A stretch of DNA of 51,474 nucleotides, taken from a phage. Made by a program: the position numbers and the translations under genes. Each line of letters starts with the position of its first letter. Within the stretch, counting starts at the first letter, position 1. Of the stretch, positions 8,327 through 50,128 are shown piece after piece. The stretch lies in the sequence record PZ445410.1. One strand, written 5' to 3'. The notes below the pieces were generated by a model, which had not been told where the DNA came from, searched no databases, and saw only the letters and a program-made list of their open reading frames with translations.

Positions 8327-9607
8327 ATGAGTAAATCACGAATCGTTAAGGCTGATGGCTATAACGAGATCTTTAAAGGCGAGAATTGCAAATCGCGAGT
8401 AGAGCAACCATTCTACATGCAATCAATGCCATACAAGACACTTGCTGACTTTTACGAAAAAGACGGCCTGGCAAAAAGGGTTATTGACGTAGTACCAGAG
8501 GAAATGGTTTCCCCTGGCTTCACGGTTGACGGCGTGGCAGACGAGGCAGCATTCCGTTCTTTGTGGGATGAGAAGCGATTGAATGCAAAAATTATTGATG
8601 CGCTTTGCTGGTCGCGTTTGTTTGGCGGATCTGCAATCATTGCTCTTGTTCAGGATGGTCGGGCGCTCAAATCACCTGTAAAACCTGGTGCCATGCTGGA
8701 AGACGTGCGCGTTTACGATCGTTATCAGATTCGCGTTGAAGCGCGAGAAACAAATCCCCGCAAGGTTCGCTATGGTGAGCCAGTGCTTTACACTGTAACG
8801 CCAGGCGGAGACTTGCCGGAATACCAGGTACACTACACGCGCGTTTGCATTATCGACGGCGAGCGGATACCTAACGCAAAGCGACGCAGCAATGATGGCT
8901 GGGGTGAGTCAGTTCTTAACAAGCGACTTGTTGAGGCTATTGTTGATTATAACTATTGTGAAACATTGGCAACGCAATTATTGCGGCGGAAGCAACAGGC
9001 TGTATGGAAGGCTAAAGGACTCGCTGACTTGTGCGATGATGAGGAAGGTGTTAGCGCGGCACGCCTGAGACTTGCGCAGGTTGACGACGAGGGCGGTGTT
9101 GGCAAAGCAATTGGTATTGATGCTGAGGATGAGGAATATGATGTTCTTAATTCTGACATCAGCGGCGTTGATTCTTTCTTGGAAAAGAAAATGGATCGCA
9201 TCGTTTCCCTTTCAGGTATTCATGAAATCATCCTGAAAAATAAAAACGTTGGCGGCGTTAGCGCAAGCCAAAACACGGCGCTTGAAACATTCTATAAGCT
9301 GATTGAACGAAAACGCATTGAGGATTACAAGCCTATCCTTGAATTTCTATTACCGTTCATCATTAGTGAGCAAGAGTGGAGCATTGAGTTTTCACCTTTG
9401 AGCGTACCTAGCGATAAAGATCAGGCTGAAATTCTGAATAAGAATATCGACTCAATCAGCAAGGCTATTGATGGTCAGTTCCTTGATGTTGAAGAAGCGC
9501 GAGACACGTTGCGAGCAATCGCCCCAAGCGTTAAACTAAAGGACACTAATAAAATCAAGCTGCCGGAGCCAGCGGAGCCGGAGCCAGGCACACAGGGGAA
9601 TGAGTAA
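8327..9607 (+). CDS. portal protein
   Basis: 426 aa; position after large terminase; acidic C-terminus. Confidence 0.7.
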   Translation: MSKSRIVKADGYNEIFKGENCKSRVEQPFYMQSMPYKTLADFYEKDGLAKRVIDVVPEEMVSPGFTVDGVADEAAFRSLWDEKRLNAKIIDALCWSRLFGGSAIIALVQDGRALKSPVKPGAMLEDVRVYDRYQIRVEARETNPRKVRYGEPVLYTVTPGGDLPEYQVHYTRVCIIDGERIPNAKRRSNDGWGESVLNKRLVEAIVDYNYCETLATQLLRRKQQAVWKAKGLADLCDDEEGVSAARLRLAQVDDEGGVGKAIGIDAEDEEYDVLNSDISGVDSFLEKKMDRIVSLSGIHEIILKNKNVGGVSASQNTALETFYKLIERKRIEDYKPILEFLLPFIISEQEWSIEFSPLSVPSDKDQAEILNKNIDSISKAIDGQFLDVEEARDTLRAIAPSVKLKDTNKIKLPEPAEPEPGTQGNE

Positions 9608-10371
9608 TGAAAGTGAAGGGCGTCGTTAAACAATGGCGCTTTCCTGAAGCAAGCGAGCGGCAATTTAGCCGCTCAATTCAGGAGGCAATTAGAGATCTTG
9701 TGGTTCTCATGCGCAAGCGAACAAAAGCGATGAAGTTTGACGCAACAGATAATGAGATCAACATCGCAGAAGATGAAATTAACAGCCTGGCAACTGACCT
9801 TATAGCTGGCATTGTTTCAGCTCTTCCTGCAATCGCGTTGACCATTTATAAATTCAATGCGAAGCAGTTTATCAATGTTGCCAAGTCAACTGGCGGAAAG
9901 GATAACACGGCGGTAATTGTTTTGATCGCGGTTGGCGCTAACGCTAACGAGGATTGGTATCAGACGCTATACGGTCAATGGCACGGGCTTACAGAATCAT
10001 CGCTAAGGAAGTTATTCACAAATATTGTGTCTGACTGGTCAACAAACATTCGCAATGCAAACTTTCGCGGAAGCAATGATAAACAGGTTAATGATCTTGC
10101 AGAAAAGAGATTTGCTGTTTATAGCTCCTGGGGTAAAACTAGATCAGAAAACATTATCGGCGCGTGGAATAGTCGCCTTATGCGCCAGCGCCTTTATGAT
10201 GCTAAGGTGACTCATTATTTCTGGCATGGAATGTTAGATGATAGAGAGCGCTTGCAGCATGTGTTATGGGAAGGTAAAAGAATAGCGCTTGATGCAATTC
10301 ATGATTTCCCTGGTGAGCCGTGGGGTTGCCGTTGCTGGGCGATTCCAGACTGGAATAATAAAGGAGAGTAA
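9607..10371 (+). CDS. head morphogenesis / minor capsid protein
   Basis: 254 aa directly after portal, ATGA overlap; assignment by gene order. Confidence 0.5.
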   Translation: MKVKGVVKQWRFPEASERQFSRSIQEAIRDLVVLMRKRTKAMKFDATDNEINIAEDEINSLATDLIAGIVSALPAIALTIYKFNAKQFINVAKSTGGKDNTAVIVLIAVGANANEDWYQTLYGQWHGLTESSLRKLFTNIVSDWSTNIRNANFRGSNDKQVNDLAEKRFAVYSSWGKTRSENIIGAWNSRLMRQRLYDAKVTHYFWHGMLDDRERLQHVLWEGKRIALDAIHDFPGEPWGCRCWAIPDWNNKGE

Positions 10372-10374
10372 TTA

Positions 10375-11487
10375 ATGAAGTCAAAACAAAGATTTGATAG
10401 CGTCCAGGTTAAGGCGCATTTTGATGATAATGGCTTTTTAGTGGATCGCCCAATTGTGGCGCGAATTGGTTTGCAGGAGTACCGCACACCGTATGGAATC
10501 AGACGAGAGTTCCGACCAGCGTCAGAGGTGTTTAAGGCTGATTCGCTTGCTACGTTCGCAGGCAAGCCGATCACTATCGGTCACGTCACAGTGACGCCAG
10601 ACAATGCGGATCAGGTTGTTGTTGGTTCATGCGCTGGCGCTGGTGTTCCAAATGGGATTGGCGTTGAAGTTCCGTTAAGCATTTACTCAAAGAGAGCAAT
10701 TGAGAGCGCAAAAAAGAAAGACACGGCGGAAATTTCAGTCGGTTACACATCGGTTGATATTGATAAGCCAGGATGGGGTAATAATAAAACTGGTGATTAC
10801 TTGTTTGAGGAAGACCTTAAGGAAGACTGGAAGCCTGATTCTCCTGATTGGGTTAAATTTGACGCCATTCAGACGAATATTCGTGTTAATCACATTGCGC
10901 TCGTCTTTCGTGGTCGTGCTGGAATTGCCAAATTAAATCTTGATAGCGAACAGGATTTTCCGTATAGTGACGAGGTTTCAAATGACAAAGGAGATGAGGA
11001 AATGACAGTAAAAATCAAACTTGATGGCGCGGTAGAATTTGATGTTCCAAAGGCCGTTGCTGATCATATTGAGGCGCTAAAGGCTGACGCAAAAGCTGCA
11101 ACCGAAAAAGCTGATGGCCTTGAGGCAGAGCGCGACGCCCTGAAAACTAAAGTCGATGGCATTCCGGCGCAGATTGCAGAAGCTGTTAAGAAGGCGAAGA
11201 CTGACGCAGAAGAACACGCCAAGCTGGTTGCAGATGCAACTGAAATTGGCATCAAGTGTGACGGCTTGGACGCTAAAGCGATCAAGGTTGCTTACGTCAA
11301 AGAAGTCACTGGCGCTGATATTTCAGAAAAAGCCGATGCATATATTGAAACAGCTTTTGACCTTGCGAAGCAGTCTGATAAAATGGCGGCGCAGCGTAAA
11401 TCTGTTAAGGGCGATTCTTTCGAGTCTGGCAAGAGTGAAAAAACCGACTCCCTTGATCCGACTGCGCGTTTGAAAAAACTTAAATAA
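10375..11487 (+). CDS. putative prohead protease and/or scaffolding protein
   Basis: 370 aa; C-terminal coiled-coil-like Ala/Lys/Glu-rich region; position before capsid genes. Confidence 0.4.
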   Translation: MKSKQRFDSVQVKAHFDDNGFLVDRPIVARIGLQEYRTPYGIRREFRPASEVFKADSLATFAGKPITIGHVTVTPDNADQVVVGSCAGAGVPNGIGVEVPLSIYSKRAIESAKKKDTAEISVGYTSVDIDKPGWGNNKTGDYLFEEDLKEDWKPDSPDWVKFDAIQTNIRVNHIALVFRGRAGIAKLNLDSEQDFPYSDEVSNDKGDEEMTVKIKLDGAVEFDVPKAVADHIEALKADAKAATEKADGLEAERDALKTKVDGIPAQIAEAVKKAKTDAEEHAKLVADATEIGIKCDGLDAKAIKVAYVKEVTGADISEKADAYIETAFDLAKQSDKMAAQRKSVKGDSFESGKSEKTDSLDPTARLKKLK

Positions 11488-11499
11488 GGAGAAATAAAC

Positions 11500-12012
11500 A
11501 TGGCTACAATTGGAGCAAGTTATTTTGCTGTAATGTCTCGTGCGTTACCTGGTCAGGTTTCTGACACTTCAGCTTATAATATTGATAGCGCTTGTGTTCT
11601 TGAGAATGCGGCAGGCAATCAGAATCAGTCTGTTTTTGTTGGTGTGGCGGTCCAGCATGGCGGCGTTGATGCGATGGGTAATAAACTGATCAAGCCCATG
11701 GCGGCAAGCGGCAAGGCTTACGGCGTTGCAATTCGATCTCACTTTCAGACAACTTCGTCTGACGGTCGAATGATTTATGAATCTGGCGGCGGGATCAACG
11801 TAATGACTGAAGGGCGTGTTTGGATGTTGGCTAAAGACGCATCCGCGCCAGCGTTCGGCGCTACAATCAAACTTTCTGATGATGGTCAGGTTGATACCGC
11901 GTCTGGCACTATCGAAACAAACTGGATCGCGACTGGTGATTTCACCGAGTTTCAAGGCTTGAAGCTGGTAGAGGTTCAGGTGCAAAAAGTTCCGGCAGTT
12001 TCAGCAGGTTAA
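11500..12012 (+). CDS. structural protein, paralog 1 (possible head decoration protein)
   Basis: Shares GVAV...VW.L...AP..G...DG....G...W(I)..TG pattern with the next ORF. Confidence 0.5.
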   Translation: MATIGASYFAVMSRALPGQVSDTSAYNIDSACVLENAAGNQNQSVFVGVAVQHGGVDAMGNKLIKPMAASGKAYGVAIRSHFQTTSSDGRMIYESGGGINVMTEGRVWMLAKDASAPAFGATIKLSDDGQVDTASGTIETNWIATGDFTEFQGLKLVEVQVQKVPAVSAG

Positions 12013-12504: not shown

Positions 12505-12532
12505 TTGCACGTTTAACAAAAAATGCTATCAT
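12505..12532 (+). promoter_or_regulatory. sigma70-type promoter (TTGCAC, 16 nt, TATCAT)
   Basis: Hexamers with 16-nt spacer; spacer contains a reverse-oriented partial TAGCAC-box (TTAACAAAAAATGCTA). Confidence 0.4.
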
Positions 12533-26713: not shown

Positions 26714-26982
26714 TATTTGCACTCCACATAATCAAAATTATCCTCGCTTTGCCACCTGTGAACGAAAGTTACATATTTTTGTGATGGAGCTACGCGATAG
26801 TGTTTTTCACCGAATCTGTTTTCGCGCACAGCGTTTATTTTCACAGGATAGCTATCATTTACAGGGAATGTTTTCACCATGTATGAGCCAACGCAATCAA
26901 CCTCTTTATAGCCCCCATCCATTGACGCAGAACAACCAGTCAGGGCAACGGCGGCAATCAAAACGGCTATTAACTTTTTCAT
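26713..26982 (-). CDS. outer-membrane lipoprotein, Cor/Llp-like superinfection exclusion candidate
   Basis: Signal peptide MKKLIAVLIAAVALTGC with lipobox; 89 aa; just downstream of the J gene on the opposite strand. Confidence 0.5.
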   Translation of the reverse strand: MKKLIAVLIAAVALTGCSASMDGGYKEVDCVGSYMVKTFPVNDSYPVKINAVRENRFGEKHYRVAPSQKYVTFVHRWQSEDNFDYVECK

Positions 26983-27013: not shown

Positions 27014-27055
27014 ACTATACACGATCTTGCGGTGGGCGTTTAGCAAAAAGTGCCA
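27014..27055 (-). promoter_or_regulatory. TAGCAC-box variant (TGGCACTTTTTGCTAAACG) with TATAGT
   Basis: Motif at canonical spacing, oriented toward the lipoprotein gene. Confidence 0.4.
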
Positions 27056-27119
27056 TTCTGTTCTTTTTGTTCTCCTGCGTTCTCAAATCTGCGGAGGCTT
27101 AAATTTAGCTCAAAATGTG

Positions 27120-27330
27120 AGCAACAATAGAGCGATATACATACAGATAAATATATATACATACATATAAATCAATAAGTTAGTAGTATATATATTTATA
27201 TTTGTTCTTTATTGTTATCTATGTTTTGTGTGATTTTGTGTGTCTGGTGATTTTTCTGTGATTATGTATGTGTCAGTGGTTGTGTGTGTCTATATATCTA
27301 TATCCGGCGCAAATTGAGGAACAAGAGAAC
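27120..27330. repeat. AT-rich, C-depleted iteron-like element, copy A
   Basis: Shares AAATCAATAAGTTAGT...TATTTATATTTGTT core and GT-rich GGTGAT/GTGAT word repeats with 49265-49480. Confidence 0.6.
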
Positions 27331-27359
27331 AAAAAGACAACAAAGATATTTATCAATCA

Positions 27360-27373
27360 CTTACATGTAAGTT
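27360..27373. promoter_or_regulatory. perfect 14-bp palindrome ACTTACATGTAAGT (operator-like)
   Basis: Perfect dyad 55 nt upstream of the exonuclease promoter -35. Confidence 0.35.
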
Positions 27374-27427
27374 TTGTTATCAAAGATGTCTAGAACGTTG
27401 TTAGAACAGAAAAAACAAAATAACTAT

Positions 27428-27455
27428 TGACTAAACGCATCAAATAGCTACAATG
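27428..27455 (+). promoter_or_regulatory. sigma70-type promoter (TTGACT, 16 nt, TACAAT)
   Basis: Near-consensus hexamers; A/T-rich upstream region. Confidence 0.55.
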
Positions 27456-27483: not shown

Positions 27484-28545
27484 ATGAATAAGTTTATGGC
27501 GTACACCAGCGAAGAAATGAGCAACGAGCTTTATCACAATCCAGAAGCGTGGACTGCTGATTATGTTAGCGGTTCAAGCCTGGCAGAGATTTACAGCACA
27601 TGCCCGGCAGCGTGGAAGTTCAAGCCGCGTGACGACAAGAGCAAGGCGCTAGTTTTTGGTACGCAGTCGCATACCAATTTTGAAAGCAAGGAGCTTTTCG
27701 AAAAAACCTATCGCCGTGCGCCAGCGCCAGAAGACTTTAAGGATCTGATAACCAGCCAAACGGCGCTTGCTGCAAAGCTAAAATCATTTGGCCTGAAAGG
27801 TACAACAGGAAAGACTTACCCTGAACTTATAAAAATGTTGGTTGACTGCGGAGAAGACCTTAACGTCATGTGGTTAATCGACATGATCGCAGAAAGTCAA
27901 GCCAGGGCCGATGGGGTTCAGTTAATCGAAGCTAAAGATTACGATGCGTGCGTGGCAATGCGCCAGGTTCTGGAATCAATACCGGAACATAACGCATGTA
28001 TGAATAGCAAGACGGCACAACGTGAATTATCGTTATTCGGTGAAATCAACGGCGTAAAAGTCAAAGTGCGATGCGATCACGTTGACGTAACAAAGAACGT
28101 GACAGCAACTCTTATTGATGGTTACGATGAAAAAGGTCAGCCGATTTGCCGCGATATTATTTATCCAGAAGCTATTGTGATCACTGACTACAAAACAACA
28201 ATGAGCGCTAATCCGGTTGAGTTTATGCGCCTGGCTTACAATCACGGCTATTATTTGAAAATGGCGTTGCAATGTGATTTATTCAGAAAAGCGTATCCAG
28301 AAGAAAAGCGACCTATAGTTGTGCGACTGTTAGCGCAAGAGAAGAAAGAGCCTTATTTGCCGTTGGCTTTTCGCATGAATAGCGAGCAATTAAAGATCGG
28401 GCGCATTCAGTACATGAGCGTGATTAACCAGTTTGCCATGTGCCAGCAGCATGACGTTTGGCCTTCGTATTCAAACGGTGAGCCGGAGGTTTGCCTTGAT
28501 ACTCCTGATTGGGTGCGCCGCCAGTTTAAGCAATATCTTATTTAA
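27484..28545 (+). CDS. RecB-family PD-(D/E)XK exonuclease (recombination exonuclease)
   Basis: RCDHVDV and VITDYKTT nuclease motifs; followed by Erf-like and SSB genes. Confidence 0.6.
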   Translation: MNKFMAYTSEEMSNELYHNPEAWTADYVSGSSLAEIYSTCPAAWKFKPRDDKSKALVFGTQSHTNFESKELFEKTYRRAPAPEDFKDLITSQTALAAKLKSFGLKGTTGKTYPELIKMLVDCGEDLNVMWLIDMIAESQARADGVQLIEAKDYDACVAMRQVLESIPEHNACMNSKTAQRELSLFGEINGVKVKVRCDHVDVTKNVTATLIDGYDEKGQPICRDIIYPEAIVITDYKTTMSANPVEFMRLAYNHGYYLKMALQCDLFRKAYPEEKRPIVVRLLAQEKKEPYLPLAFRMNSEQLKIGRIQYMSVINQFAMCQQHDVWPSYSNGEPEVCLDTPDWVRRQFKQYLI

Positions 28546-29654: not shown

Positions 29655-30107
29655 ATGCATATTATTACTGGTGAGATCCGAAAAGAGCCGCGAGTAAAGC
29701 AAATGCCTAACGGCAGCACACTTTATGTAGTTGAACTTCCAGAGCGATACAAAGATAAAGATGGAAACTGGCAATATACAAACTACAGTTTCTTTTTTAA
29801 TGCTAAAACAGAAGGTATTAAGGGTTGGTATGATGAGGCGTTCCAGGTTGGCAAGGTTATTTCTGTATCTTGCGACACTCTGCGCATTGAAACGCGAGAA
29901 TACAACGGAAAGATGTATTCAAGTTTAATGCCAGGAGGATTTGCAAATCTTATCTTCAGTCAGCGCGGGGAAAGCCAGCAACAATATCAGCAGCGAACGC
30001 AATGGGGATGGGGCCAACCACAACAACAGAATCAACCGCAACAACCGCAACAGCCAAGACAAAGCAATCAGCCACCTATGGATTTTGACGACGACATCCC
30101 TTTTTGA
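29655..30107 (+). CDS. ssb: single-stranded DNA-binding protein
   Basis: OB-fold-like N-terminal region, Gln/Pro-rich linker, C-terminal tip DFDDDIPF as in E. coli SSB. Confidence 0.85.
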   Translation: MHIITGEIRKEPRVKQMPNGSTLYVVELPERYKDKDGNWQYTNYSFFFNAKTEGIKGWYDEAFQVGKVISVSCDTLRIETREYNGKMYSSLMPGGFANLIFSQRGESQQQYQQRTQWGWGQPQQQNQPQQPQQPRQSNQPPMDFDDDIPF

Positions 30108-30111
30108 TCAG

Positions 30112-30136
30112 TAAAGGGGCATTACGCCCCTTTTTC
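30112..30136. terminator. bidirectional intrinsic terminator
   Basis: AGGGGC-ATTAC-GCCCCT flanked by A/T runs. Confidence 0.65.
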
Positions 30137-33062: not shown

Positions 33063-35017
33063 TATACAATTTCCCCCAATTGATGATCTGTTAATGCCTT
33101 ATGCCAGATCCTAAAGTTTCTAATGTGTCCAAACAAATGGCGCTCTCCAGTTCCTGTTTGTCCGCCAAACCTGATATTTTTATCTCCTGTTACGCCTATG
33201 TAATCGCAGTATGAATCAGACACTGCTATAGCATTGGTGACAACATGAAATTTGCCATCAGATTTTGCAATGCATCCAAAAGTGGATTTTTTTGCAAACA
33301 CATCAGATGCCGCGCTATTAATATATGCCCCAGCAGGCGTTGATAAACTCATGTATAATTTTCCACTTCCTCTATTTATTGCCGCAATTGCTGATTGACC
33401 AGTATTTGCAGCAGCTATATCCCAAACACGAGGGGCAGAATTTGGAGCAACATCCCAACACTTACTAACCTCAAGCAAAAAAGTAAACGGCAATTTATAT
33501 AGGTTGTTTTTTGTTGGAATGCTAACAAGATCGCTAGCTCTCGTTGTTGGCATTGAAGTTATAATAAATGACGATGCTGTATTTCCAAGTTCAATTTGCG
33601 GCGTAGCCATCGTTAACGTTGAATCAGAATAAAATGGTTCGTTGTTAATTTTATTAGTCATGTAAAATGCACAATTAACAGTGTCAACATTTGTATTGGC
33701 TGTATATGTCGCTTGATAATACATCCATTCGCCATCCTGTTCCACTTTAGCGGTTATAAGTGAAGTGTCTCCACTTACCGATGCAACCAAAGTATCAAGA
33801 TCCAAATAAGAATCAGCAGAAAATGTATCTACTCCATCAATAATTGTAGACACTCGAAGCCTGCATCTTGCTTTAGCACCTTTAACCCTACAAGAAAAGG
33901 TGAAACTTTCACCTGACACCAAAGGGAATCTATCGGCTGTAACAACTCCATGAACGGTATAACCTCCAGTAGTACCAACAATACTTTCTACAGGGGTGAC
34001 TGTAGCGTAGTTAAAACCACGATCATCCGTTCCGAAAGTTTTATTTAAAGAAGAATGAATAGTCCAAGAATCTGTTTTATTTGAGTTTCTTAGATAGTTA
34101 GTTCTTTGCCCTTCGATTAAAAGACCTTCTTTTTCAAAACGAGGTTCGTCAATCTCCGCAACAGTCAATACACCTGATTTGTTAATATAAGTTGCTGTTG
34201 AAGCGCGTGAAAATGTAACTACTTTATCTGTTGGCATAGTTATAACATCATTACCAACTGTTATTTTTTTGTAACCAGGTGCAAAGCCTGTAATCATCTC
34301 AAGAGAATCATTAAACGGTATCCACACGTCGGGCAGCGGTTGCAATAAATCTTTGTAAGGTTCTGCGGCCTGCCTTGCGTATTCCTCCGCTTGATCTCGC
34401 GCACTTTCAGCTCCTGCCTTTGCAGTGTTCGCAGCGTTACGCGCGGATTCAGCGCCAGACTTTGCTGTTTCAGCGCCAGTCTTTGCAGTGTTTGCAGCGT
34501 CGCGCGCGGATTCAGCAGCGGTCTTTGCAGTATCAGCGCCTTTCTTGCTGTTTTCTGCATTTGTTGCGCTTTTCTTCGCGTTATTCTCGCTAGTTTTAGC
34601 GGCCTTCTGGCTTGCTGCGGCCGCAGCAGCATCGCTCTTTACGTCAGCCTGTATCTGTTGAAGTTTATCCCAATCAAATGTTTCGATGATCTCAATGAAT
34701 CTGGCAAATTCAGTTTCTTTACCCTGGTAATATCGCAGTGTTTCAGCGACATCTTGCGCCAGGCCATCAACAGTTATTGAATCATGAAGCATGATCAGAT
34801 AGTTTGTCTTTGCTACAACAGCGCCGCCAGTAGTAATGGCGCGAATGCTTGTGTCGCTAATAACCTCAGTGATTACAGCGGCTTGCATTGGATTTGTTAA
34901 GAAAAATATTGTTGCACCAGGGCGAATGAGTGTTAGCTGTTCGCGCCATTTTGTGCCGTATCCAGTTATATAACCTTGCGCGTCCATTGACGCCTGTCCG
35001 GTTCTGTAAATTGCCAT
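33062..35017 (-). CDS. side tail fibre protein
   Basis: T7 gp17-like N-terminal virion-attachment region, Ala-rich tandem repeats, C-terminal lectin-like region; GGGAG RBS at chosen ATG. Confidence 0.65.
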
Positions 35018-35115: not shown

Positions 35116-36048
35116 TTAGAGAATTGATTCAGGTTTGAAAACCTTCCTCTCTATCCCTTGCCTGTAATTATCATTAATCGGCATCATAATTTCAAGTCCT
35201 CTTTCCTCGGCAGCAATGATCGCGTCACGGTCTGTACTCTTACAGACAACTCTCATTCTTCTGTTTCCCTTATACCTGTAAGCCACAATCTCAATGTTAG
35301 TTGCATCAAAGCAGGCCCAGACCTCTTGACCAGTTGCAAGGTGGATGTGTTGCGCATCAATCCAGTCAACGCAAAGATAGATCGTCTTATCTGTACTTCC
35401 TGTTCTCACAATCGACCCTCGCGTGTAGTCCTTTGCGAGAAAAGACTGATTGCCGTCTTCATCAATGAAAAGCACATTGCACATTTCATCATCAATCTCA
35501 TCTGAGTGTACCAGGTGACACGGTAACGCGTGAATGTATCGGCCATCTTTTACGCCGCAATCATAATGACCATCTTCAGGCGGGTATATTCCTTCATATG
35601 TGCTTAACGGCGTGCGATCAAATTTTAGTGTTTTTGACATAACGCGCTCGCAGCATTCATGGCTTGCCTGTTTCCCAAACGAATAACCAGAATCACGAGA
35701 TACTCGCTTATTTGCCTTGATCCTATAGTCCTGCGGAACTTTTCCAAGAAAACGGCCCAAAATATTGATCACTTCGCTGTAAGGTTCTCCGGTTAGCTTC
35801 ATGATCCAACCAATTCCGGTATCATTACCGCACACGTTGCAGATCGCACCGCCATCGCCTTTTTTATCGCCAAGTTTATCCGTCCATCTGAAGCGATCCT
35901 TTCCGCCGCAGTGTGGGCAAGATTGATGCTTTCCGTTAAAAACTTCATTTGGAAGACCGCAAATACTTTGTAGCGCCTCACGCCACAATCCTTGCATATA
36001 TGGGAGAACATCTTCCTTTTGATAAACCATAAAGTTTTCGTTATTCAT
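35116..36048 (-). CDS. DNA primase (zinc-binding)
   Basis: CPHCGG...CNVCG zinc-binding motif; acidic DEIDDE / DEDG region; GAGGTG RBS. Confidence 0.6.
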
Positions 36049-36103
36049 ATACACCTCAAACAAAAAAGCCTGACAGATGATAACATCATGCCAGGCATTG
36101 TTT

Positions 36104-36577
36104 TTAGCAATTAGTGCTTTCAGGTTTATACAGGAATCCGCCAGGTTCATAATCTGACATTCTTACCACTCGCAACATTTCACGCTTATCACATCTCTTT
36201 GTGAGCGGTTTGCCATTGGAATCAAATCGCAGGTCTGGACGACAGAATGATGCGCGATAGCCTTGACATCCATATTTTTTGTAATCGTTATGCACCTTTT
36301 GAGCGCCAGCGGCTGAAATCATACCGCGAACGCGCCACTGATTTACAGTTTGCTGGCTAACGTTAAGACGTTTTGCCATTGCTGACACGCTTCCGTAATA
36401 CTCAATAAGGATGTCAAGTCGCGCTTTTAGTCCGGCGCGCACTTCATCTTTTAAAACATAGTATCCCGTAGGGCGCTTGCGCTTCTTCTTATCCTTTCCT
36501 CTTCGAGTTCCGTTATTGCCATTAATTGTGCGCTTGTCAATCTTGCCTGTTGATACTGCGATTCGTTGCTCTTTCAT
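36104..36577 (-). CDS. HTH DNA-binding protein (Cro/YdaS-like)
   Basis: SVSAMAKRLNVSQQTVNQWRVRG helix-turn-helix; basic N-terminus; divergent from helicase gene. Confidence 0.5.
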   Translation of the reverse strand: MKEQRIAVSTGKIDKRTINGNNGTRRGKDKKKRKRPTGYYVLKDEVRAGLKARLDILIEYYGSVSAMAKRLNVSQQTVNQWRVRGMISAAGAQKVHNDYKKYGCQGYRASFCRPDLRFDSNGKPLTKRCDKREMLRVVRMSDYEPGGFLYKPESTNC

Positions 36578-42703: not shown

Positions 42704-43102
42704 ATGAGAAAGTTATCAGCAATCGCGATCGCTGTTATTTTGTCTGGATGTTCAAGCGTTACGCCACTGACCGGATTAATCGGTAGTAAGCCGGAAATCA
42801 CAGCACAGGCAGGAGCGGAGAACGTAAAGCAGACCGTTGGCGTTACCGCAAAGCAGGACACCAGCACAAAACAGGAAACTACAATAAAGGAATCTGCGGT
42901 TGATAAGGTGGACACTTCCAGCAAGAAGGATTTCACTACGTCAACCATTCAGGCTAACACCATCAAGGCTGATAAAATCCAGGTTGTGCAGGGTGAGCAA
43001 AGTAAGTGGTACGATCCTATAATCTATTGCGCTGCAATTTTCAGTGGTCTTTTGTCAATGCTTTACTTTTCCTACCGCAAAGGCAACAAAAAGGAGGCTT
43101 AA
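42704..43102 (+). CDS. unimolecular spanin (T1 gp11-type)
   Basis: Lipoprotein signal with lipobox LSGC plus C-terminal TMD; 132 aa; last gene of lysis cassette. Confidence 0.7.
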   Translation: MRKLSAIAIAVILSGCSSVTPLTGLIGSKPEITAQAGAENVKQTVGVTAKQDTSTKQETTIKESAVDKVDTSSKKDFTTSTIQANTIKADKIQVVQGEQSKWYDPIIYCAAIFSGLLSMLYFSYRKGNKKEA

Positions 43103-43117
43103 CGCCTCCTTTGTTTT
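43093..43117. terminator. bidirectional terminator-like hairpin
   Basis: GGAGGC-TTAAC-GCCTCC then TTTGTTTT. Confidence 0.5.
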
Positions 43118-43352
43118 ATAGTGAATCCATCAAATCTTGAAAGCTGTTTCCGCTATAATCATTCTCGACAAGAATGTAAGCACCTTTCTTCTTTATATCC
43201 CATAGCATTTCATTGTATTCGTAACGATTTATTTCAAACGTGCTGCCATCTTCTCTTGTCGCAGTTCCTTTGTCGTTGAAAACATCAAAAGTTACATTGA
43301 TGATTTTTGTCTCTTTCTTTGTTACTTTGATAGCCATTTTTAAAATCCTCAT
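43116..43352 (-). CDS. hypothetical protein (78 aa)
   Basis: ORF downstream of minus-strand promoter-like cassette. Confidence 0.5.
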   Translation of the reverse strand: MRILKMAIKVTKKETKIINVTFDVFNDKGTATREDGSTFEINRYEYNEMLWDIKKKGAYILVENDYSGNSFQDLMDSL

Positions 43353-43370
43353 ATTCGTTCCGATGAAACA

Positions 43371-43413
43371 AATATACCCGATACGAGATCGGGAGTTTTA
43401 ACAAAAAGTGCTA
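43371..43413 (-). promoter_or_regulatory. TAGCAC-box promoter-like cassette (TATATT)
   Basis: Exact motif on minus strand; its TAG is the stop of ORF 43411..43605. Confidence 0.5.
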
Positions 43414-43605
43414 TTCAATACGCTTTACAGTAACCAACAAAACGCCGTCCTCATCACACAAATTATGCTCTGATATATCAAACGCTCGCATGTCAGAATG
43501 AATGAGCGTTAACATTGCGTGCATGAAGTCGTCATGTGAGATTGAACTTACGGCGCAGAACTTCAATATTTTGTCTATTAGCATTTGACGTAAACAATTC
43601 TTCAT
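43411..43605 (-). CDS. hypothetical protein (start uncertain)
   Basis: Track ORF; overlaps the next ORF by 74 nt so the true start may be internal. Confidence 0.35.
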   Translation of the reverse strand: MKNCLRQMLIDKILKFCAVSSISHDDFMHAMLTLIHSDMRAFDISEHNLCDEDGVLLVTVKRIE

Positions 43606-43926: not shown

Positions 43927-45510
43927 TTACCCCAGCAATGTTGGATTTACGAAAACAACGCCATTAATCACACAAATATAATTTCTTTCCTCAAGCATCG
44001 GAAGCAGTTGCGTTTCCATGCGCTTCATTACGCCAGCCTGACCAACAAACGGCTTAACTTTTCGTGCAGCCTCATATATGGCGCGAACATTCAAGATTCC
44101 CTTATTAGCCTTTCCGTGTCGAGTGATGATCTCGATTAGTTTACCCATTTCAGCATCATCACCAGCGTAGCCAGAAGCGTTGGCGGCGCTAATGTATGTT
44201 TTGCTCAACTCGCTAAACATCAACAATGCTTCCTGAACGGTTTCAACCTCAATTTCTTTCGACTTCTGAGGGTATCCACCAGGATTAAACCAGTTGCGGA
44301 TAGTGTGCAAAACTGAAGCAATCCTGATCACCTGCTTATCCATTTTGCCAAGCGCGCCGCGCAGCATTGTATGCGAATACTTTCCGCCATCGGCAAGGTG
44401 CGGTTCCATCTCCTGACGAGCCATGTTAAGAACTCGCATTGCTGATTTGCTGATCTTAAGCTGGATGTTTGATTCGCTCATTATGTTATGGATCAGCTTG
44501 AAATATTGGCTTTTCAGTTCCCCGTCAACAGGTTCATAAGTAGAATCACCGTTATCATCAACAAACTTTCTACGGCCTAAAAATGATTCCTCACGCACAA
44601 GCAAATAACGCTCACTTACACCGATACCGCGCGATCCTGCATCCATGATGGCATTGATTGTTTCATCCTGGGCAATTACCGCCATACAGCCAAGAGCTTT
44701 AAAACTCATATTGTTGTCAGCGTTTGCACGAGCTATAGAAACATGACCATGATCCCAGGCTTTTAATACAAGTTCGCTGTTGGTTTTACGTTCGCTATTG
44801 GCATATGTCAGACCTAAAAGGCTGTTAATACTCGTTGCCTCGTCTGAAATTACAGCAAAGTTTCCCTGGCGGTTGTTGATTCTTGCAAGTCCTTCCGGCG
44901 TGGTGTCGGAGACAGGGAAAACAATGTCACACATCTTTTCCAGTTTTTCTTCCAGATCTTCTTTCTCCTGGTATAGCGATTCCATATCAGCGCCGGAACG
45001 CTCGCTTTTCATCTCTTTTGCAAGACCTGCCAACTTTGCCTGAATCTTTTTTCTTTCCTTCTTTCGCTGATCGTTAATTCTTTCCACTTCTGCAACCATT
45101 GGAGCAAGTGCCAGGCTGTTAACGGCAGACTTACCAGTTGAAGGAGGCTGGCTTGTAACAACGTACAGAGCGGTTGGTTGATCCGTTCCGTGATACTCAA
45201 CCGTGAAGCGTCCAAGCATTGCAGCAGACACGCAGCCGATAAAATGCATATATGCCGATGATTCAGGGAATTGAACAGATCGAGCAATGTTGCGCGCCAA
45301 CTTTCCAACAACATCAACATCATTGCCAAGAGAAATTATAGGGTAGCGATCGTTTCCGTTATTAACATCATTAACCTCACCCCAAAAGCTGGACGATTGA
45401 CGGTATCCGTTTGCCTGAATGGACACGCGCACCGGAGACAATCCTTGTGCATCAGCTAATTCGATAATTTGTTTTGGTGTTAGTTTATTGGTTTCAAACG
45501 AAAAATTCAT
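43927..45510 (-). CDS. P-loop ATPase, putative replication protein
   Basis: Walker A PPSTGKS, Walker B FAVISDEA; 527 aa; AGGAG RBS. Confidence 0.55.
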   Translation of the reverse strand: MNFSFETNKLTPKQIIELADAQGLSPVRVSIQANGYRQSSSFWGEVNDVNNGNDRYPIISLGNDVDVVGKLARNIARSVQFPESSAYMHFIGCVSAAMLGRFTVEYHGTDQPTALYVVTSQPPSTGKSAVNSLALAPMVAEVERINDQRKKERKKIQAKLAGLAKEMKSERSGADMESLYQEKEDLEEKLEKMCDIVFPVSDTTPEGLARINNRQGNFAVISDEATSINSLLGLTYANSERKTNSELVLKAWDHGHVSIARANADNNMSFKALGCMAVIAQDETINAIMDAGSRGIGVSERYLLVREESFLGRRKFVDDNGDSTYEPVDGELKSQYFKLIHNIMSESNIQLKISKSAMRVLNMARQEMEPHLADGGKYSHTMLRGALGKMDKQVIRIASVLHTIRNWFNPGGYPQKSKEIEVETVQEALLMFSELSKTYISAANASGYAGDDAEMGKLIEIITRHGKANKGILNVRAIYEAARKVKPFVGQAGVMKRMETQLLPMLEERNYICVINGVVFVNPTLLG

Positions 45511-48651: not shown

Positions 48652-48920
48652 TTCTTGATCTCCTCAGCAATAAATTTCAGGACTTTGCGCAAAAACACTT
48701 CATTATTGATGGTCGCTGGCAATTCCTCTTTCACTTCTTGCGGCAGGTAAACGTTGCCATGCCAGGTCAAGCAATCGTAGTTGATACGATAAGAGCAAAG
48801 CCACTCGCAATCGTTATCCGCTTCCCAAATGCAGAGTTGCAGAACATCGCCGAAGTCTTCAACAGTCAGGTCCAGACCGTGACGCTTTGCAAAGTTGAAA
48901 GTGGTTTTGCTGATGTTCAT
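48648..48920 (-). CDS. hypothetical protein (90 aa)
   Basis: First gene of leftward early operon. Confidence 0.5.
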   Translation of the reverse strand: MNISKTTFNFAKRHGLDLTVEDFGDVLQLCIWEADNDCEWLCSYRINYDCLTWHGNVYLPQEVKEELPATINNEVFLRKVLKFIAEEIKK

Positions 48921-49001: not shown

Positions 49002-49264
49002 TTTGCTGACTGGTCATTATTCCACATATTCCATTAATCAGGAATAACAGGAATAATTCATTCGCGATCACCTGGATTGTGAGACTTTGAGTTTGATCAA
49101 TTTTAATCAGTTGATTAACTTTTTGTGTGGAGGGGATAGAGAAATGCGGCCCTCTTGCATCCTTTCCGGCAATCCTGGCGCGCACATCTGTTATTTCTGT
49201 TCCCCGTGTTATCTCAAATAAGCCTCCGCACTTTTAGATAACAGAATCGGCGTTCATCAACAAA

Positions 49265-49480
49265 AAGAACAAAATAAAATTTATATATATACCCATAAAA
49301 TCAATAAGTTAGTTATATATGTATTTATATTTGTTATTTACTGTTGAGCTTGTTCTATTGGTATATGGTGGGGTGGTATTGTTTGTGGTGATATGTATGT
49401 GTGATTGTATATTTTTTAATCAATGGTGATGTGTGGTGATTTTTGTATGTATATATATGGGTATGGGGCAATCCTCCGTC
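49265..49480. repeat. AT-rich, C-depleted iteron-like element, copy B
   Basis: Shares core with copy A; three GGTGAT words; about 110 nt with almost no C on the plus strand. Confidence 0.6.
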
Positions 49481-49593
49481 AACCAAGTCAACAAGGTCAT
49501 TTTTAACAGAAAAACCAATGGCTTAACTGAAGCATTTTGTTATCTTTAAACACGCCATGCGCCAAAAATTGTTATTAAAACACAAAAATACAT

Positions 49594-49621
49594 TGACATG
49601 CAGGAAGGGCAAGGCAATAAT
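49594..49621 (+). promoter_or_regulatory. sigma70-type promoter (TTGACA, 16 nt, AATAAT)
   Basis: Consensus -35; A/T-rich upstream region. Confidence 0.5.
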
Positions 49622-49657
49622 GCATTAAGTTTAAACGCAACAAAAGGAGTAGATGCC

Positions 49658-50128
49658 ATGATCGAAGAAAATATTAGCACCATGTCGCGTAGTGAGTTCT
49701 GCGATATGCTTCGCGACCTGGGCGCGGCAATTGGTAGTGGTGAGCGTAATAATGTATTCATGCCAGCGCTTTTTTTGTGCGCTAATGTGGAGAACGGCGA
49801 AGCAATTACGGCATCGTACATGCGCCAGGTTGTCAACCGCGTACCTGAAGTAAAGCAAAAAGGCGTGATCAGCATTAAGCGAAAGGTGACTGATGAGGGT
49901 GATGGCTTTGTGTTTGCGCTCACTGAAGCCAAAAGCAAACCTCGTGTTCTGACTGGGGATGATATAGCGAAACTTGAAATCAAGTGGCGAGCAAAGTTTA
50001 TTGCTCAACTACTGAAAACACAGCCGCGAATCAGTGATCTGGAAGGTGAGCGCCTGGAGGGTGCGGCAATCGCACTTGAGCGAATGAATGAAATGCTCAA
50101 CGAGATGGTAAAGGTGGGGGATGAATAA
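49658..50128 (+). CDS. hypothetical early protein (157 aa)
   Basis: AAAAGGAG RBS before internal ATG of track ORF. Confidence 0.5.
   Translation: MIEENISTMSRSEFCDMLRDLGAAIGSGERNNVFMPALFLCANVENGEAITASYMRQVVNRVPEVKQKGVISIKRKVTDEGDGFVFALTEAKSKPRVLTGDDIAKLEIKWRAKFIAQLLKTQPRISDLEGERLEGAAIALERMNEMLNEMVKVGDE

Follow-up and report, generated by a model that had tools for sequence, protein, structure and literature searches.

Replication origins of the iteron type, such as lambda ori, pSC101 and the R6K gamma ori, combine phased iterons with an AT-rich unwinding region, a site for integration host factor (IHF) and a specificity protein that co-evolves with the iterons. In Bacillus phage SPP1, a pac-type headful siphovirus, two origins (oriL and oriR) feature repeated boxes beside an AT-rich region and are served by one phage protein. 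Arrays of sites for helix-turn-helix (HTH) regulators, combined with an IHF bend between divergent promoters, are found in Mu O1–O3 and in lambda OR/OL, with a Cro-like gene near the replication genes. T1, one of the seven classical T phages, gives its name to the group of siphoviruses considered here. The present work concerns a T1-like phage sequence of 51,474 nt (PZ445410.1; the whole stretch is hereafter referred to as the window) and two related non-coding elements within it, copy A (around 27120–27330) and copy B (around 49265–49480). In the satellite phage P4, the alpha primase-helicase recognizes type I iterons (TGTTCACC), which occur as copies 9–11 nt apart in two elements, ori and crr (NC_001609 annotation).

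The papers on the T1-like phages TLS (2024) and SU57 (2020) report no replication origin, and the origin proposed for Sfin-1 (2019) is a GC-skew guess only; a literature search on a T1-family origin, IHF dependence and transcriptome found nothing relevant. On the basis of their anatomy, both blocks are the best candidates so far for replication origins of T1-like phages. With a probability of about one half, each copy would be a cis-acting assembly site of replication-origin type that is wired to an early promoter. The most likely form of this arrangement, by analogy with plasmid Rep proteins that initiate at iterons and autoregulate, would be a coupled role as origin and early-promoter control.

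Anatomy of two paralogous elements

Copy A occupies a block of 501 nt between a leftward lipoprotein gene (start at 26982) and the rightward exonuclease/Erf/SSB operon (exonuclease start at 27484), in agreement with the non-coding interval of about 500 nt that the original prediction had placed between these operons. The block contains no plausible open reading frame (ORF), no tRNA and no Rfam match (nothing at the gathering threshold across the window, nothing at E<=1 in either region), and a non-coding RNA or a small ORF was rejected as an explanation on these grounds, only junk ORFs being present. The claimed recurrence at 49265–49480 is confirmed by local alignment, with a score of 105 for copies A and B against 28.8 ± 4.7 in shuffles of copy B (20-nt blocks, composition kept; z ~16), well beyond what AT-richness provides. 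In a repeat search the two copies match over 110 nt at 71% identity, and they share a 50-nt core at ~90% identity. The two copies, ~22 kb apart and ~450 bp each, are true paralogues.

As had been noted from the letters alone, the AT-rich core of copy A is followed by a GT-rich, C-poor tract. Segments with no more than 5 C per 100 nt occur in the window only at 27165–27289 and 49294–49476, and the longest C-free runs of the genome (65 and 47 nt) both lie in copy B. Core and tract are located where the original prediction put them, but the elements reach well outside its bounds by virtue of TGTT(C/A)T and A(G/T)AACA words, whose arrays widen them to ~27037–27454 (A) and ~49189–49621 (B). The organization of copy A is as follows.

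27014–27057, minus strand: promoter of the leftward lipoprotein operon, at the left boundary of copy A; a 21-nt repeat (reverse complement of 27037–27057 = aATGGCACtttTTGcTAAAc) plus TATAGT at 27014–27019, firing away from the element
27059–27083, plus strand: outer direct iteron array; TGTTCT 27059, TGTTCT 27068, CGTTCT 27078, at 9–10 nt spacing
27091–27098: left GC clamp of the low-stability region, GCGGAGGC; relatives have analogous CCGGCG(T/C)AAA blocks
27123–27272: AT-rich core, candidate DNA-unwinding element; the least stable 150-mer of the genome
27170–27182, plus strand: IHF consensus site AATCAATAAGTTA, matching WATCAANNNNTTR, inside the 16-mer AAATCAATAAGTTAGT that is exact in copy B too
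27203–27227, plus strand: inner direct iteron array; TGTTCT 27203, TGTTAT 27213, TGTTTT 27222
27222–27300, plus strand: GT-rich, C-poor tract; 5 C in 79 nt, many alternating TG/TA steps, contains the GTGAT words
27304–27310: right GC clamp, CCGGCGC
27318–27341, minus strand: inverted iteron array; GGAACA, AGAACA, AGACAACA; block conservation 0.75
27351–27363, plus strand: second IHF consensus, TATCAATCACTTA; a site here (−133/−141 from the exonuclease ATG) is present in most relatives
27372–27424: promoter-proximal words; TTTTGTTATC 27372–27381 (same in copy B), AGAACG 27392, AGAACA 27403, AAAACA 27412; conservation 0.79
27427–27454, plus strand: early promoter of the exonuclease/Erf/SSB operon; near-consensus sigma-70, TTGACT-16-TACAAT

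Within the core of copy A there are tandem 20-mers (27135–27174) and a perfect 14-nt inverted repeat (27147–27160 / 27186–27199), and the segment 27322–27337 is 94% complementary to 27062–27077. Copy B follows the same plan.

49189–49212, plus strand: outer direct iteron array; TGTTAT 49189, TGTTCC 49198, TGTTAT 49207
49222–49275: GC clamp and inverted words; GCCTCCGC 49222–49229, ATAACA 49238, AACAAAAAGAACAAAAT 49259–49275
49262–49341: AT-rich core, candidate DNA-unwinding element; the second least stable 80-mer of the genome
49299–49311, plus strand: IHF consensus AATCAATAAGTTA, identical in copy A
49332–49356, plus strand: inner direct iteron array; TGTTAT 49332, TGTTGA ~49342, TGTTCT 49351
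49356–49468, plus strand: GT-rich tract; one C in 113 nt
49469–49582: GC clamp and promoter-side words; CAATCCTCCG, GTCAAC twice, TTAACA, TTTTGTTATC 49535–49544, TGTTAT/AAAACA 49570–49582 abutting the promoter
49593–49621, plus strand: early promoter of the rightward early operon; near-consensus sigma-70, TTGACA-17-AATAAT

In an unbiased k-mer comparison, the enriched words other than AT words were TGTTCT and AGAACA for copy A, TGTTAT and ATAACA for copy B. Together, as TGTTMT/AKAACA, they occur 7 times in copy A and 8 times in copy B, where the genome rate would give 0.73; counts of 7 or 8 are not seen in any of 3000 shuffles that keep local composition, and both regions are the top windows of the genome. 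Same-orientation spacing peaks at 9–10, 19–20 and 27 nt in the Tempevirinae, and at 9/11/18/19 nt for the TGTAA word of T1-like phages, the z-values for spacing being inflated by the relatedness of the sequences. The inverted arrays of copy A (27318–27341 and 27392–27417) have the same layout in copy B. The clustered, helically phased word copies, far above the genome rate, are hence those expected of an iteron origin.

The same cores stand out in duplex stability. In nearest-neighbour calculations, the least stable 80-mers lie at 27147–27226 (−77.8) and 49262–49341 (−79.7), with a mean of −108.7, a standard deviation of 5.7 and the next lowest value at −90.7; the least stable 150-mer in copy A reaches −164.2 kcal/mol, against a mean of −203.9 and a standard deviation of 8.4. 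Both cores are thus the two least stable 80- and 150-bp segments of the genome, more than five standard deviations below the mean. GC skew was rejected as evidence of an origin, since it tracks gene orientation.

Predicted IHF sites are part of both elements. The consensus WATCAANNNNTTR has ten perfect matches in the window, four of which (27170, 27351, 49299 and, on the minus strand, 49104) lie within ~1.1 kb of intergenic sequence. Transcription, lastly, leaves each element on either side, given a leftward 21-nt-repeat promoter on one flank and a sigma-70 promoter on the other, and each element stops 3 nt before the −35 hexamer of its sigma-70 promoter.

The proximity of copy B to the packaging end invites a different explanation of the GT-rich tract, in which its (G)GTGAT(T) words would serve as multiple binding sites of the small terminase, akin to the TGATT-rich pac end of T1 and TLS. 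The start of the T1 record was taken as pac from its 1–2800 terminal-repeat annotation, and the homologous region is placed as follows.

49060–49135: T1-pac-homologous region, outside the repeated unit; T1 coordinate 1 aligns at ~49090, and an IHF consensus lies at 49104–49116 (minus strand)

Copy B is ~100–200 nt from the T1-pac-aligned position, the pac-proximal sequences of T1 and TLS are rich in TGATT words, and the GTGAT/GGTGAT repeats highlighted by the original prediction do exceed the composition of the tract itself (3 against 0.20 and 4 against 0.54 expected, P ~0.001). At genome scale, however, these repeats are not clearly enriched: the genome holds 149 GTGAT, the densest 500-nt windows of plain GTGAT lie elsewhere, and for GTGATT and GGTGAT copies A and B are the richest windows by a narrow margin only (4 vs 3). 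The GTGAT words follow no regular spacing that can be made out by eye, and they are not conserved in the tracts of other lineages, in which only alternating TA/TG steps recur. Furthermore, copy A, at a distance of 22 kb from pac, lacks pac-proximal homology, the pac-proximal segment 49005–49185 is the only part of the copy B intergenic region missing from copy A, and the T1 pac end aligns ~100 nt left of the first iteron array of copy B, outside the repeated unit. A packaging array is accordingly very improbable. Among the roles once proposed for these regions (replication origin, packaging or regulatory hub), the origin-like anatomy fits the first, and packaging of the repeated unit is unsupported. 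Part of the GT-rich tract is annotated in the GenBank record of haarsle as an unexplained repeat_region.

Three further observations concern the elements and their borders. The 10-mer GCGGAGGCTT of copy A (27091–27100) appears in copy B as its reverse complement AAGCCTCCGC (49220–49229) within the same flanks (TCTCAAAT ... TTTAG), reflecting either a small inversion or a GC clamp that works in both orientations. The program-called ATG of the DUF7174 ORF (49598–50128), at 49598, falls within the −35 hexamer TTGACATG; the true start is probably ATG 49655 or 49661, after AAAAGGAG, and the Pfam match starts at residue 29. An inverted motif, ATTATTCC ... GGAATA(N)GGAATAAT, occupies 49018–49062, with the leftward promoter on one side and the pac-homologous segment on the other; it is conserved in Hanrivervirus, T1 (48766–48806), Webervirus and a metagenomic relative (L138 and L140 of the sample described below), and may serve a terminase or a regulator.

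Conservation of the architecture and divergence of the words

The phage is a T1-like siphovirus of the genus Hanrivervirus (Drexlerviridae, Tempevirinae). The 1.5 kb around copy A are 99.7% identical to Escherichia phage phiE31-2 and 85–95% identical to other Hanriverviruses. Conservation was assessed on 44 loci of ~6 kb each, retrieved via the exonuclease gene (62–99% protein identity), and on the T1 and TLS genomes. For copy B and the HTH gene discussed below, loci retrieved via the first early gene (two) and via the primase (six) represent close relatives only. Four phages encoding a DUF3987 helicase supplied further contexts: a Klebsiella Webervirus, two metagenomic Drexlerviridae-like contigs and a 78-kb myovirus-like contig. 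Their loci are labelled L138, L139, L140 and L141, the last being the 78-kb Logan ERR13868529 contig.

The position of copy A is kept in all 44 related loci, as the conservation check proposed for it had called for: the C-poorest 100-mer and the least stable 80-mer lie upstream of the exonuclease gene in 44/44, in 43 of them starting 255–397 nt before the ATG, and the least stable 80-mer starts at −318 to −382 from the exonuclease ATG in 43/44. The complete T1 genome has only two C-poor regions, which are also its two stability minima (198–345 and ~29991–30125) and lie at the equivalent positions, one immediately to the right of the pac end, the other in the gap that separates cor from the exonuclease gene. 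Both copies are present in TLS. The AT-rich unwinding region of an iteron origin hence has its counterpart in the stability minima of the window, of T1 and of the 44 loci.

Within the Tempevirinae, conservation is 0.70–0.79 for core, inverted array and promoter-proximal block, 0.75–0.85 for the exonuclease coding sequence and 0.4–0.5 for the leftward gene; identity to haarsle is 95.4% over the 241-nt core and 85.8% over the surrounding 1.5 kb. Across the 44 loci, the IHF consensus is ten-fold denser in the element than in its flanks. T1-like phages carry a site at −141 on the opposite strand, in which the consensus positions are invariant and the N4 is variable. The predicted IHF sites thus combine consensus sequence, AT-rich context and positional conservation. 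In each of the four further DUF3987 loci, the least stable stretch is again found between divergent genes upstream of the helicase operon, immediately next to it in L139 and L141 and ~2–3 kb away in L138 and L140. Two of the four elements contain the IHF consensus, one of them identical to that of the window.

The words themselves differ among lineages.

Window: TGTTCT
TLS: TGTTCAC / TGTTCCA
T1 copy A: TGTAAC (7 of 24 genomic copies)
T1 copy B: GATTAAC / ATTACG
L041: TGTAAT (10 vs 3 in 5.5 kb)
L028: TGTATA / TGTAAC
Four further DUF3987 phages, private words: TGTTTC, GGGCGAA, TGTTACC, TGGGGG

The word therefore varies by lineage within a fixed phased architecture, a co-variation that is confounded by phylogeny, and this pattern points to a phage-encoded, sequence-specific binder rather than to a host factor.

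A melt-prone AT/TG tract might also act on topology or recombination, as a supercoil sink or insulator, as a site for nucleoid proteins (H-NS, Fis or IHF), or as an entry for Exo/Erf in recombination-dependent replication. The outward firing of promoters on both sides, the adjacency of copy A to the exonuclease/Erf/SSB operon and the alternating TA/TG steps, which are the sole compositional feature kept in all lineages, are consistent with such a function. It nonetheless leaves the lineage-specific phased words and the conserved array spacing unexplained, other switches between opposed gene blocks (36577/36601 and ~43100–43530, for example) carry no such element, and a role of this kind appears quite improbable.

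Some relatives depart from the common pattern. The Shigella phage 2019SD1 (L045) has an insertion in copy A, spanning ~430 nt for a 241-nt query, and morffagbaw and A118 match only the left 40–45% of copy B. These insertions and left-only matches make the right halves of the elements appear exchangeable. Among the records compared, 18–20 GenBank entries (MG0656xx) are labelled 'Campylobacter phage' (host C. jejuni) and are 93–97% identical to the present E. coli Hanrivervirus in the regions compared; probably, the host label is wrong or the phages are contaminating coliphages.

Candidate proteins and the role of the elements

The window encodes a primase, a helicase and a putative reader of the words.

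35116–36150, minus strand: DnaG-type primase with a zinc ribbon of T7/P4 type
36104–36577, minus strand: Cro/YdaS-type HTH protein of 157 aa, T1 gp23 family; upstream of the primase gene on the same strand, with a slight overlap
43927–45510, minus strand: DUF3987 (superfamily 6, SF6; MCM-related) replicative helicase with a C-terminal winged helix

DUF3987 proteins have been described as SF6 replicative helicases with a C-terminal winged HTH (PMC4889955), and 5'-3' helicase activity has been demonstrated for one member (PMC11724360). The AlphaFold 2 model of the helicase has a predicted local distance difference test (pLDDT) score of 88.7, and its nearest folds are MCM subunits and Cdc6/Orc1. 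Its winged helix is an unlikely reader of the words, since the domain does not follow word class.

Structure-based and sequence features make the HTH protein the better candidate. Its homologues occur in 842 phage records, nearly all from phages of Enterobacterales, and its model (pLDDT 85) has Xfaso1 and N15 Cro as nearest folds. The recognition helix (aa 75–84) is its most variable part, with a column identity of 0.33 against 0.58–0.72 elsewhere (QQTVNQW in proteins of the window type, NQTVQGW in those of the T1 type), and the N- and C-terminal regions are strongly conserved. In the 78-kb contig, whose helicase is 38% identical, an HTH homologue (BLASTP E 3e-7) has the iteron element as its neighbour on one side and the helicase gene on the other.

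The sequence of the protein shows additional conserved features: a basic N-terminal motif (DKRxxNGNNGTxRGxDKKxRK) of low pLDDT and a C-terminal segment (GYRASFCRPDLxFDxNGK...C). Tlsvirus-type homologues have an extra lysine-rich C-terminal extension of ~45 aa. In the 78-kb contig, the order over 9059–11569 is iteron (TGGGGG)/AT-rich element with IHF consensus, Cro-type HTH, DUF3987 helicase and superfamily 2 helicase, which suggests that an iteron/HTH/helicase module may be mobile between phage types.

GC-bounded instability, phased private iterons, IHF sites, divergent transcription and a primase and helicase of the phage's own together match the textbook iteron origin. The observations are this arrangement, the counts and scores behind it, its persistence in relatives and the way in which the word changes with lineage; protein and IHF binding, melting, helicase loading and replication activity are inferred. 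In the corresponding mechanism, a phage-encoded protein, for which the Cro/YdaS-type HTH protein is the best candidate, would bind the helically phased TGTT(C/A)T words, both in the direct arrays that flank the AT core and in the inverted arrays on the promoter side. Host IHF would bend the DNA at the core site and at the second site nearer the promoter, and negative supercoiling from the outward-firing promoters would help to melt the AT/TG-rich core between its GC clamps. The MCM-like DUF3987 helicase and the DnaG-type primase would then be loaded at the core. At the promoter-proximal words, the same protein would tune the adjacent sigma-70 early promoter. The two copies could represent two origins, as in oriL/oriR of SPP1, or an origin and a cis partner, as in ori/crr of P4. 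More speculatively, a 5'-3' helicase leaving the core outward would ride the GT-rich strand on both sides, an idea that fits the switch of the plus strand from G-free to C-free at the core.

The same words can be read in purely transcriptional terms, as operators for the Cro-type HTH protein that would turn the two sigma-70 early promoters off (or on) at the early-to-middle transition, with IHF in an architectural role as in Mu O1–O3 and the core as a curved upstream element. The next feature downstream of each copy is one of the two strongest intergenic sigma-70 promoters, with words that abut the −35 hexamer and, in T1 copy B, appear by eye to overlap the promoter spacer/start region; the candidate reader has a Cro fold, and phage early control regions often contain IHF sites. 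Against this, the words run 370–400 bp upstream and enclose a stability minimum more than five standard deviations below the mean, neither of which a promoter needs, and they are mostly direct repeats about one helical turn apart instead of palindromic operators. Furthermore, the promoter region of the HTH gene has no word cluster, the only nearby TGTT-type word being inside a 21-nt repeat, and the HTH gene is linked to the primase or the helicase gene in two very different genome types. Purely transcriptional control is the main rival account of the elements, less likely than an origin role though by no means negligible.

Several points nevertheless weigh against assigning the elements an origin function. 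A position upstream of early promoters in both copies means that a regulatory role explains the duplication equally well; the order of element, Cro-like gene and replication genes is that of lambda OR-cro-O-P; and a Cro-type fold is what one usually meets in transcription regulators. The prevailing word is not quite the same in the two copies (TGTTCT in A, TGTTAT in B), and the association of word with lineage is subject to the phylogenetic confounding noted above. There are no DnaA boxes in either element and three in the window against seven expected, although this would be neutral for a phage with its own initiator.

Three features considered as parts of an origin were rejected, also to its detriment. 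The GTGAT/GGTGAT words, originally proposed as iterons, are neither clearly enriched in the genome, nor regularly spaced by eye, nor conserved. A conserved cruciform is not borne out by hairpin z-scores of −2.5 (A) and −1.0 (B) in the window and −1.7 and +0.6 in T1. The winged helix of the helicase, as a word reader, shows identity that does not sort by word class and a putative DNA-contact region that is alike in TGTTCT and GGGCGAA phages.

A broader proposal is rather unlikely in its entirety: that T1-family and wider DUF3987 phages would share a new origin system, with a Cro-fold HTH protein as origin-specificity factor, lineage-private iterons and two cooperating, IHF-bent origins that double as switches. 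If true, rapid co-diversification of iteron and reader could generate replication incompatibility groups among co-infecting T1-like phages.

Genomic setting and relation to described systems

In the window, genes run rightward from ~49.6 kb across the circular-permutation point to 25.8 kb, comprising the early genes, terminase and virion genes, and beyond 25.8 kb short gene blocks alternate in direction. A 63-nt tandem duplication (83% identity) is present at 34405–34530, inside a minus-strand fibre-like gene of 669 aa. The 21-nt repeat that marks the leftward boundary of copy A belongs to a family of ~20 copies in the window. The repeat, aaATAGCACnnnTTGnTAAAA, has been described in TLS, without the paired elements (PMC11447400).

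Plus orientation: 361, 1346, 2648, 3993, 8253, 22185, 28544, 36590, 39107, 40148, 50383, 50846
Minus orientation: 12512, 16273, 27037, 43397, 45565, 46241, 48108, 48985

In longer aligned copies, variable sequence comes next, which in some of them includes a GC-rich hairpin, and CATAAT/TATAAT lies ~19–22 nt past TTGnTA, a distance too great for a standard sigma-70 spacer. The repeats at 12512 and 16273 oppose the surrounding rightward late genes, unlike the rule stated for TLS, in which they are 'always in the direction of transcription'.

Elements made of iterons, an unwinding region and IHF sites are a well-known kind. What appears to be new is their identification in the T1 family, their presence in two copies at early promoters, their recurrence beside DUF3987 operons outside typical Drexlerviridae, and the pairing with a Cro-fold protein of hypervariable recognition helix. 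The analysis provides a concrete map of two elements, with their iterons, IHF sites, unwinding cores and a named candidate reader. If confirmed, this map would aid phage engineering (minimal replicons, ori-based plasmids, attenuation) and inform the control of T1-type fermentation contaminants, and a Cro-fold specificity factor working with an MCM-like helicase would constitute an added way to start phage replication.

The described systems resemble these elements to different degrees. SPP1 is not known to share sequence or protein homology with this phage. Compared with Mu and lambda, the arrays are ~400 bp long, consist of direct repeats one turn apart and surround a stability minimum, and they are found in a virulent phage devoid of repressor or immunity module. 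The likeness to P4 is closer in layout: one genome carries two separated, distant cis elements with the same short iteron (here, the shared TGTTMT words) in direct and inverted copies, the primase has a zinc ribbon of the same type, and the word of the Tempevirinae is similar, TLS copy B containing TGTTCACG twice and TGTTCCAT. The likeness to TGTTCACC is probably coincidental, however, since other lineages use unrelated words. Unlike P4, the phage has a separate primase and a DUF3987/SF6 helicase in place of an alpha-type protein reading TGTTCACC, with no alpha-type SF3 helicase or origin-binding domain; sequence searches of the PDB with the helicase and the HTH protein gave no P4 alpha chain. 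The elements are also 22 kb apart, each with its own AT core and promoter. Relative to iteron theta origins, on the other hand, the elements lack DnaA boxes, are not in or beside the initiator gene, are duplicated, and would rely on a Cro-type HTH protein instead of a winged-helix Rep or O protein, but they share with those origins the arrangement of phased words beside an AT-rich region, with a predicted IHF site between the modules.

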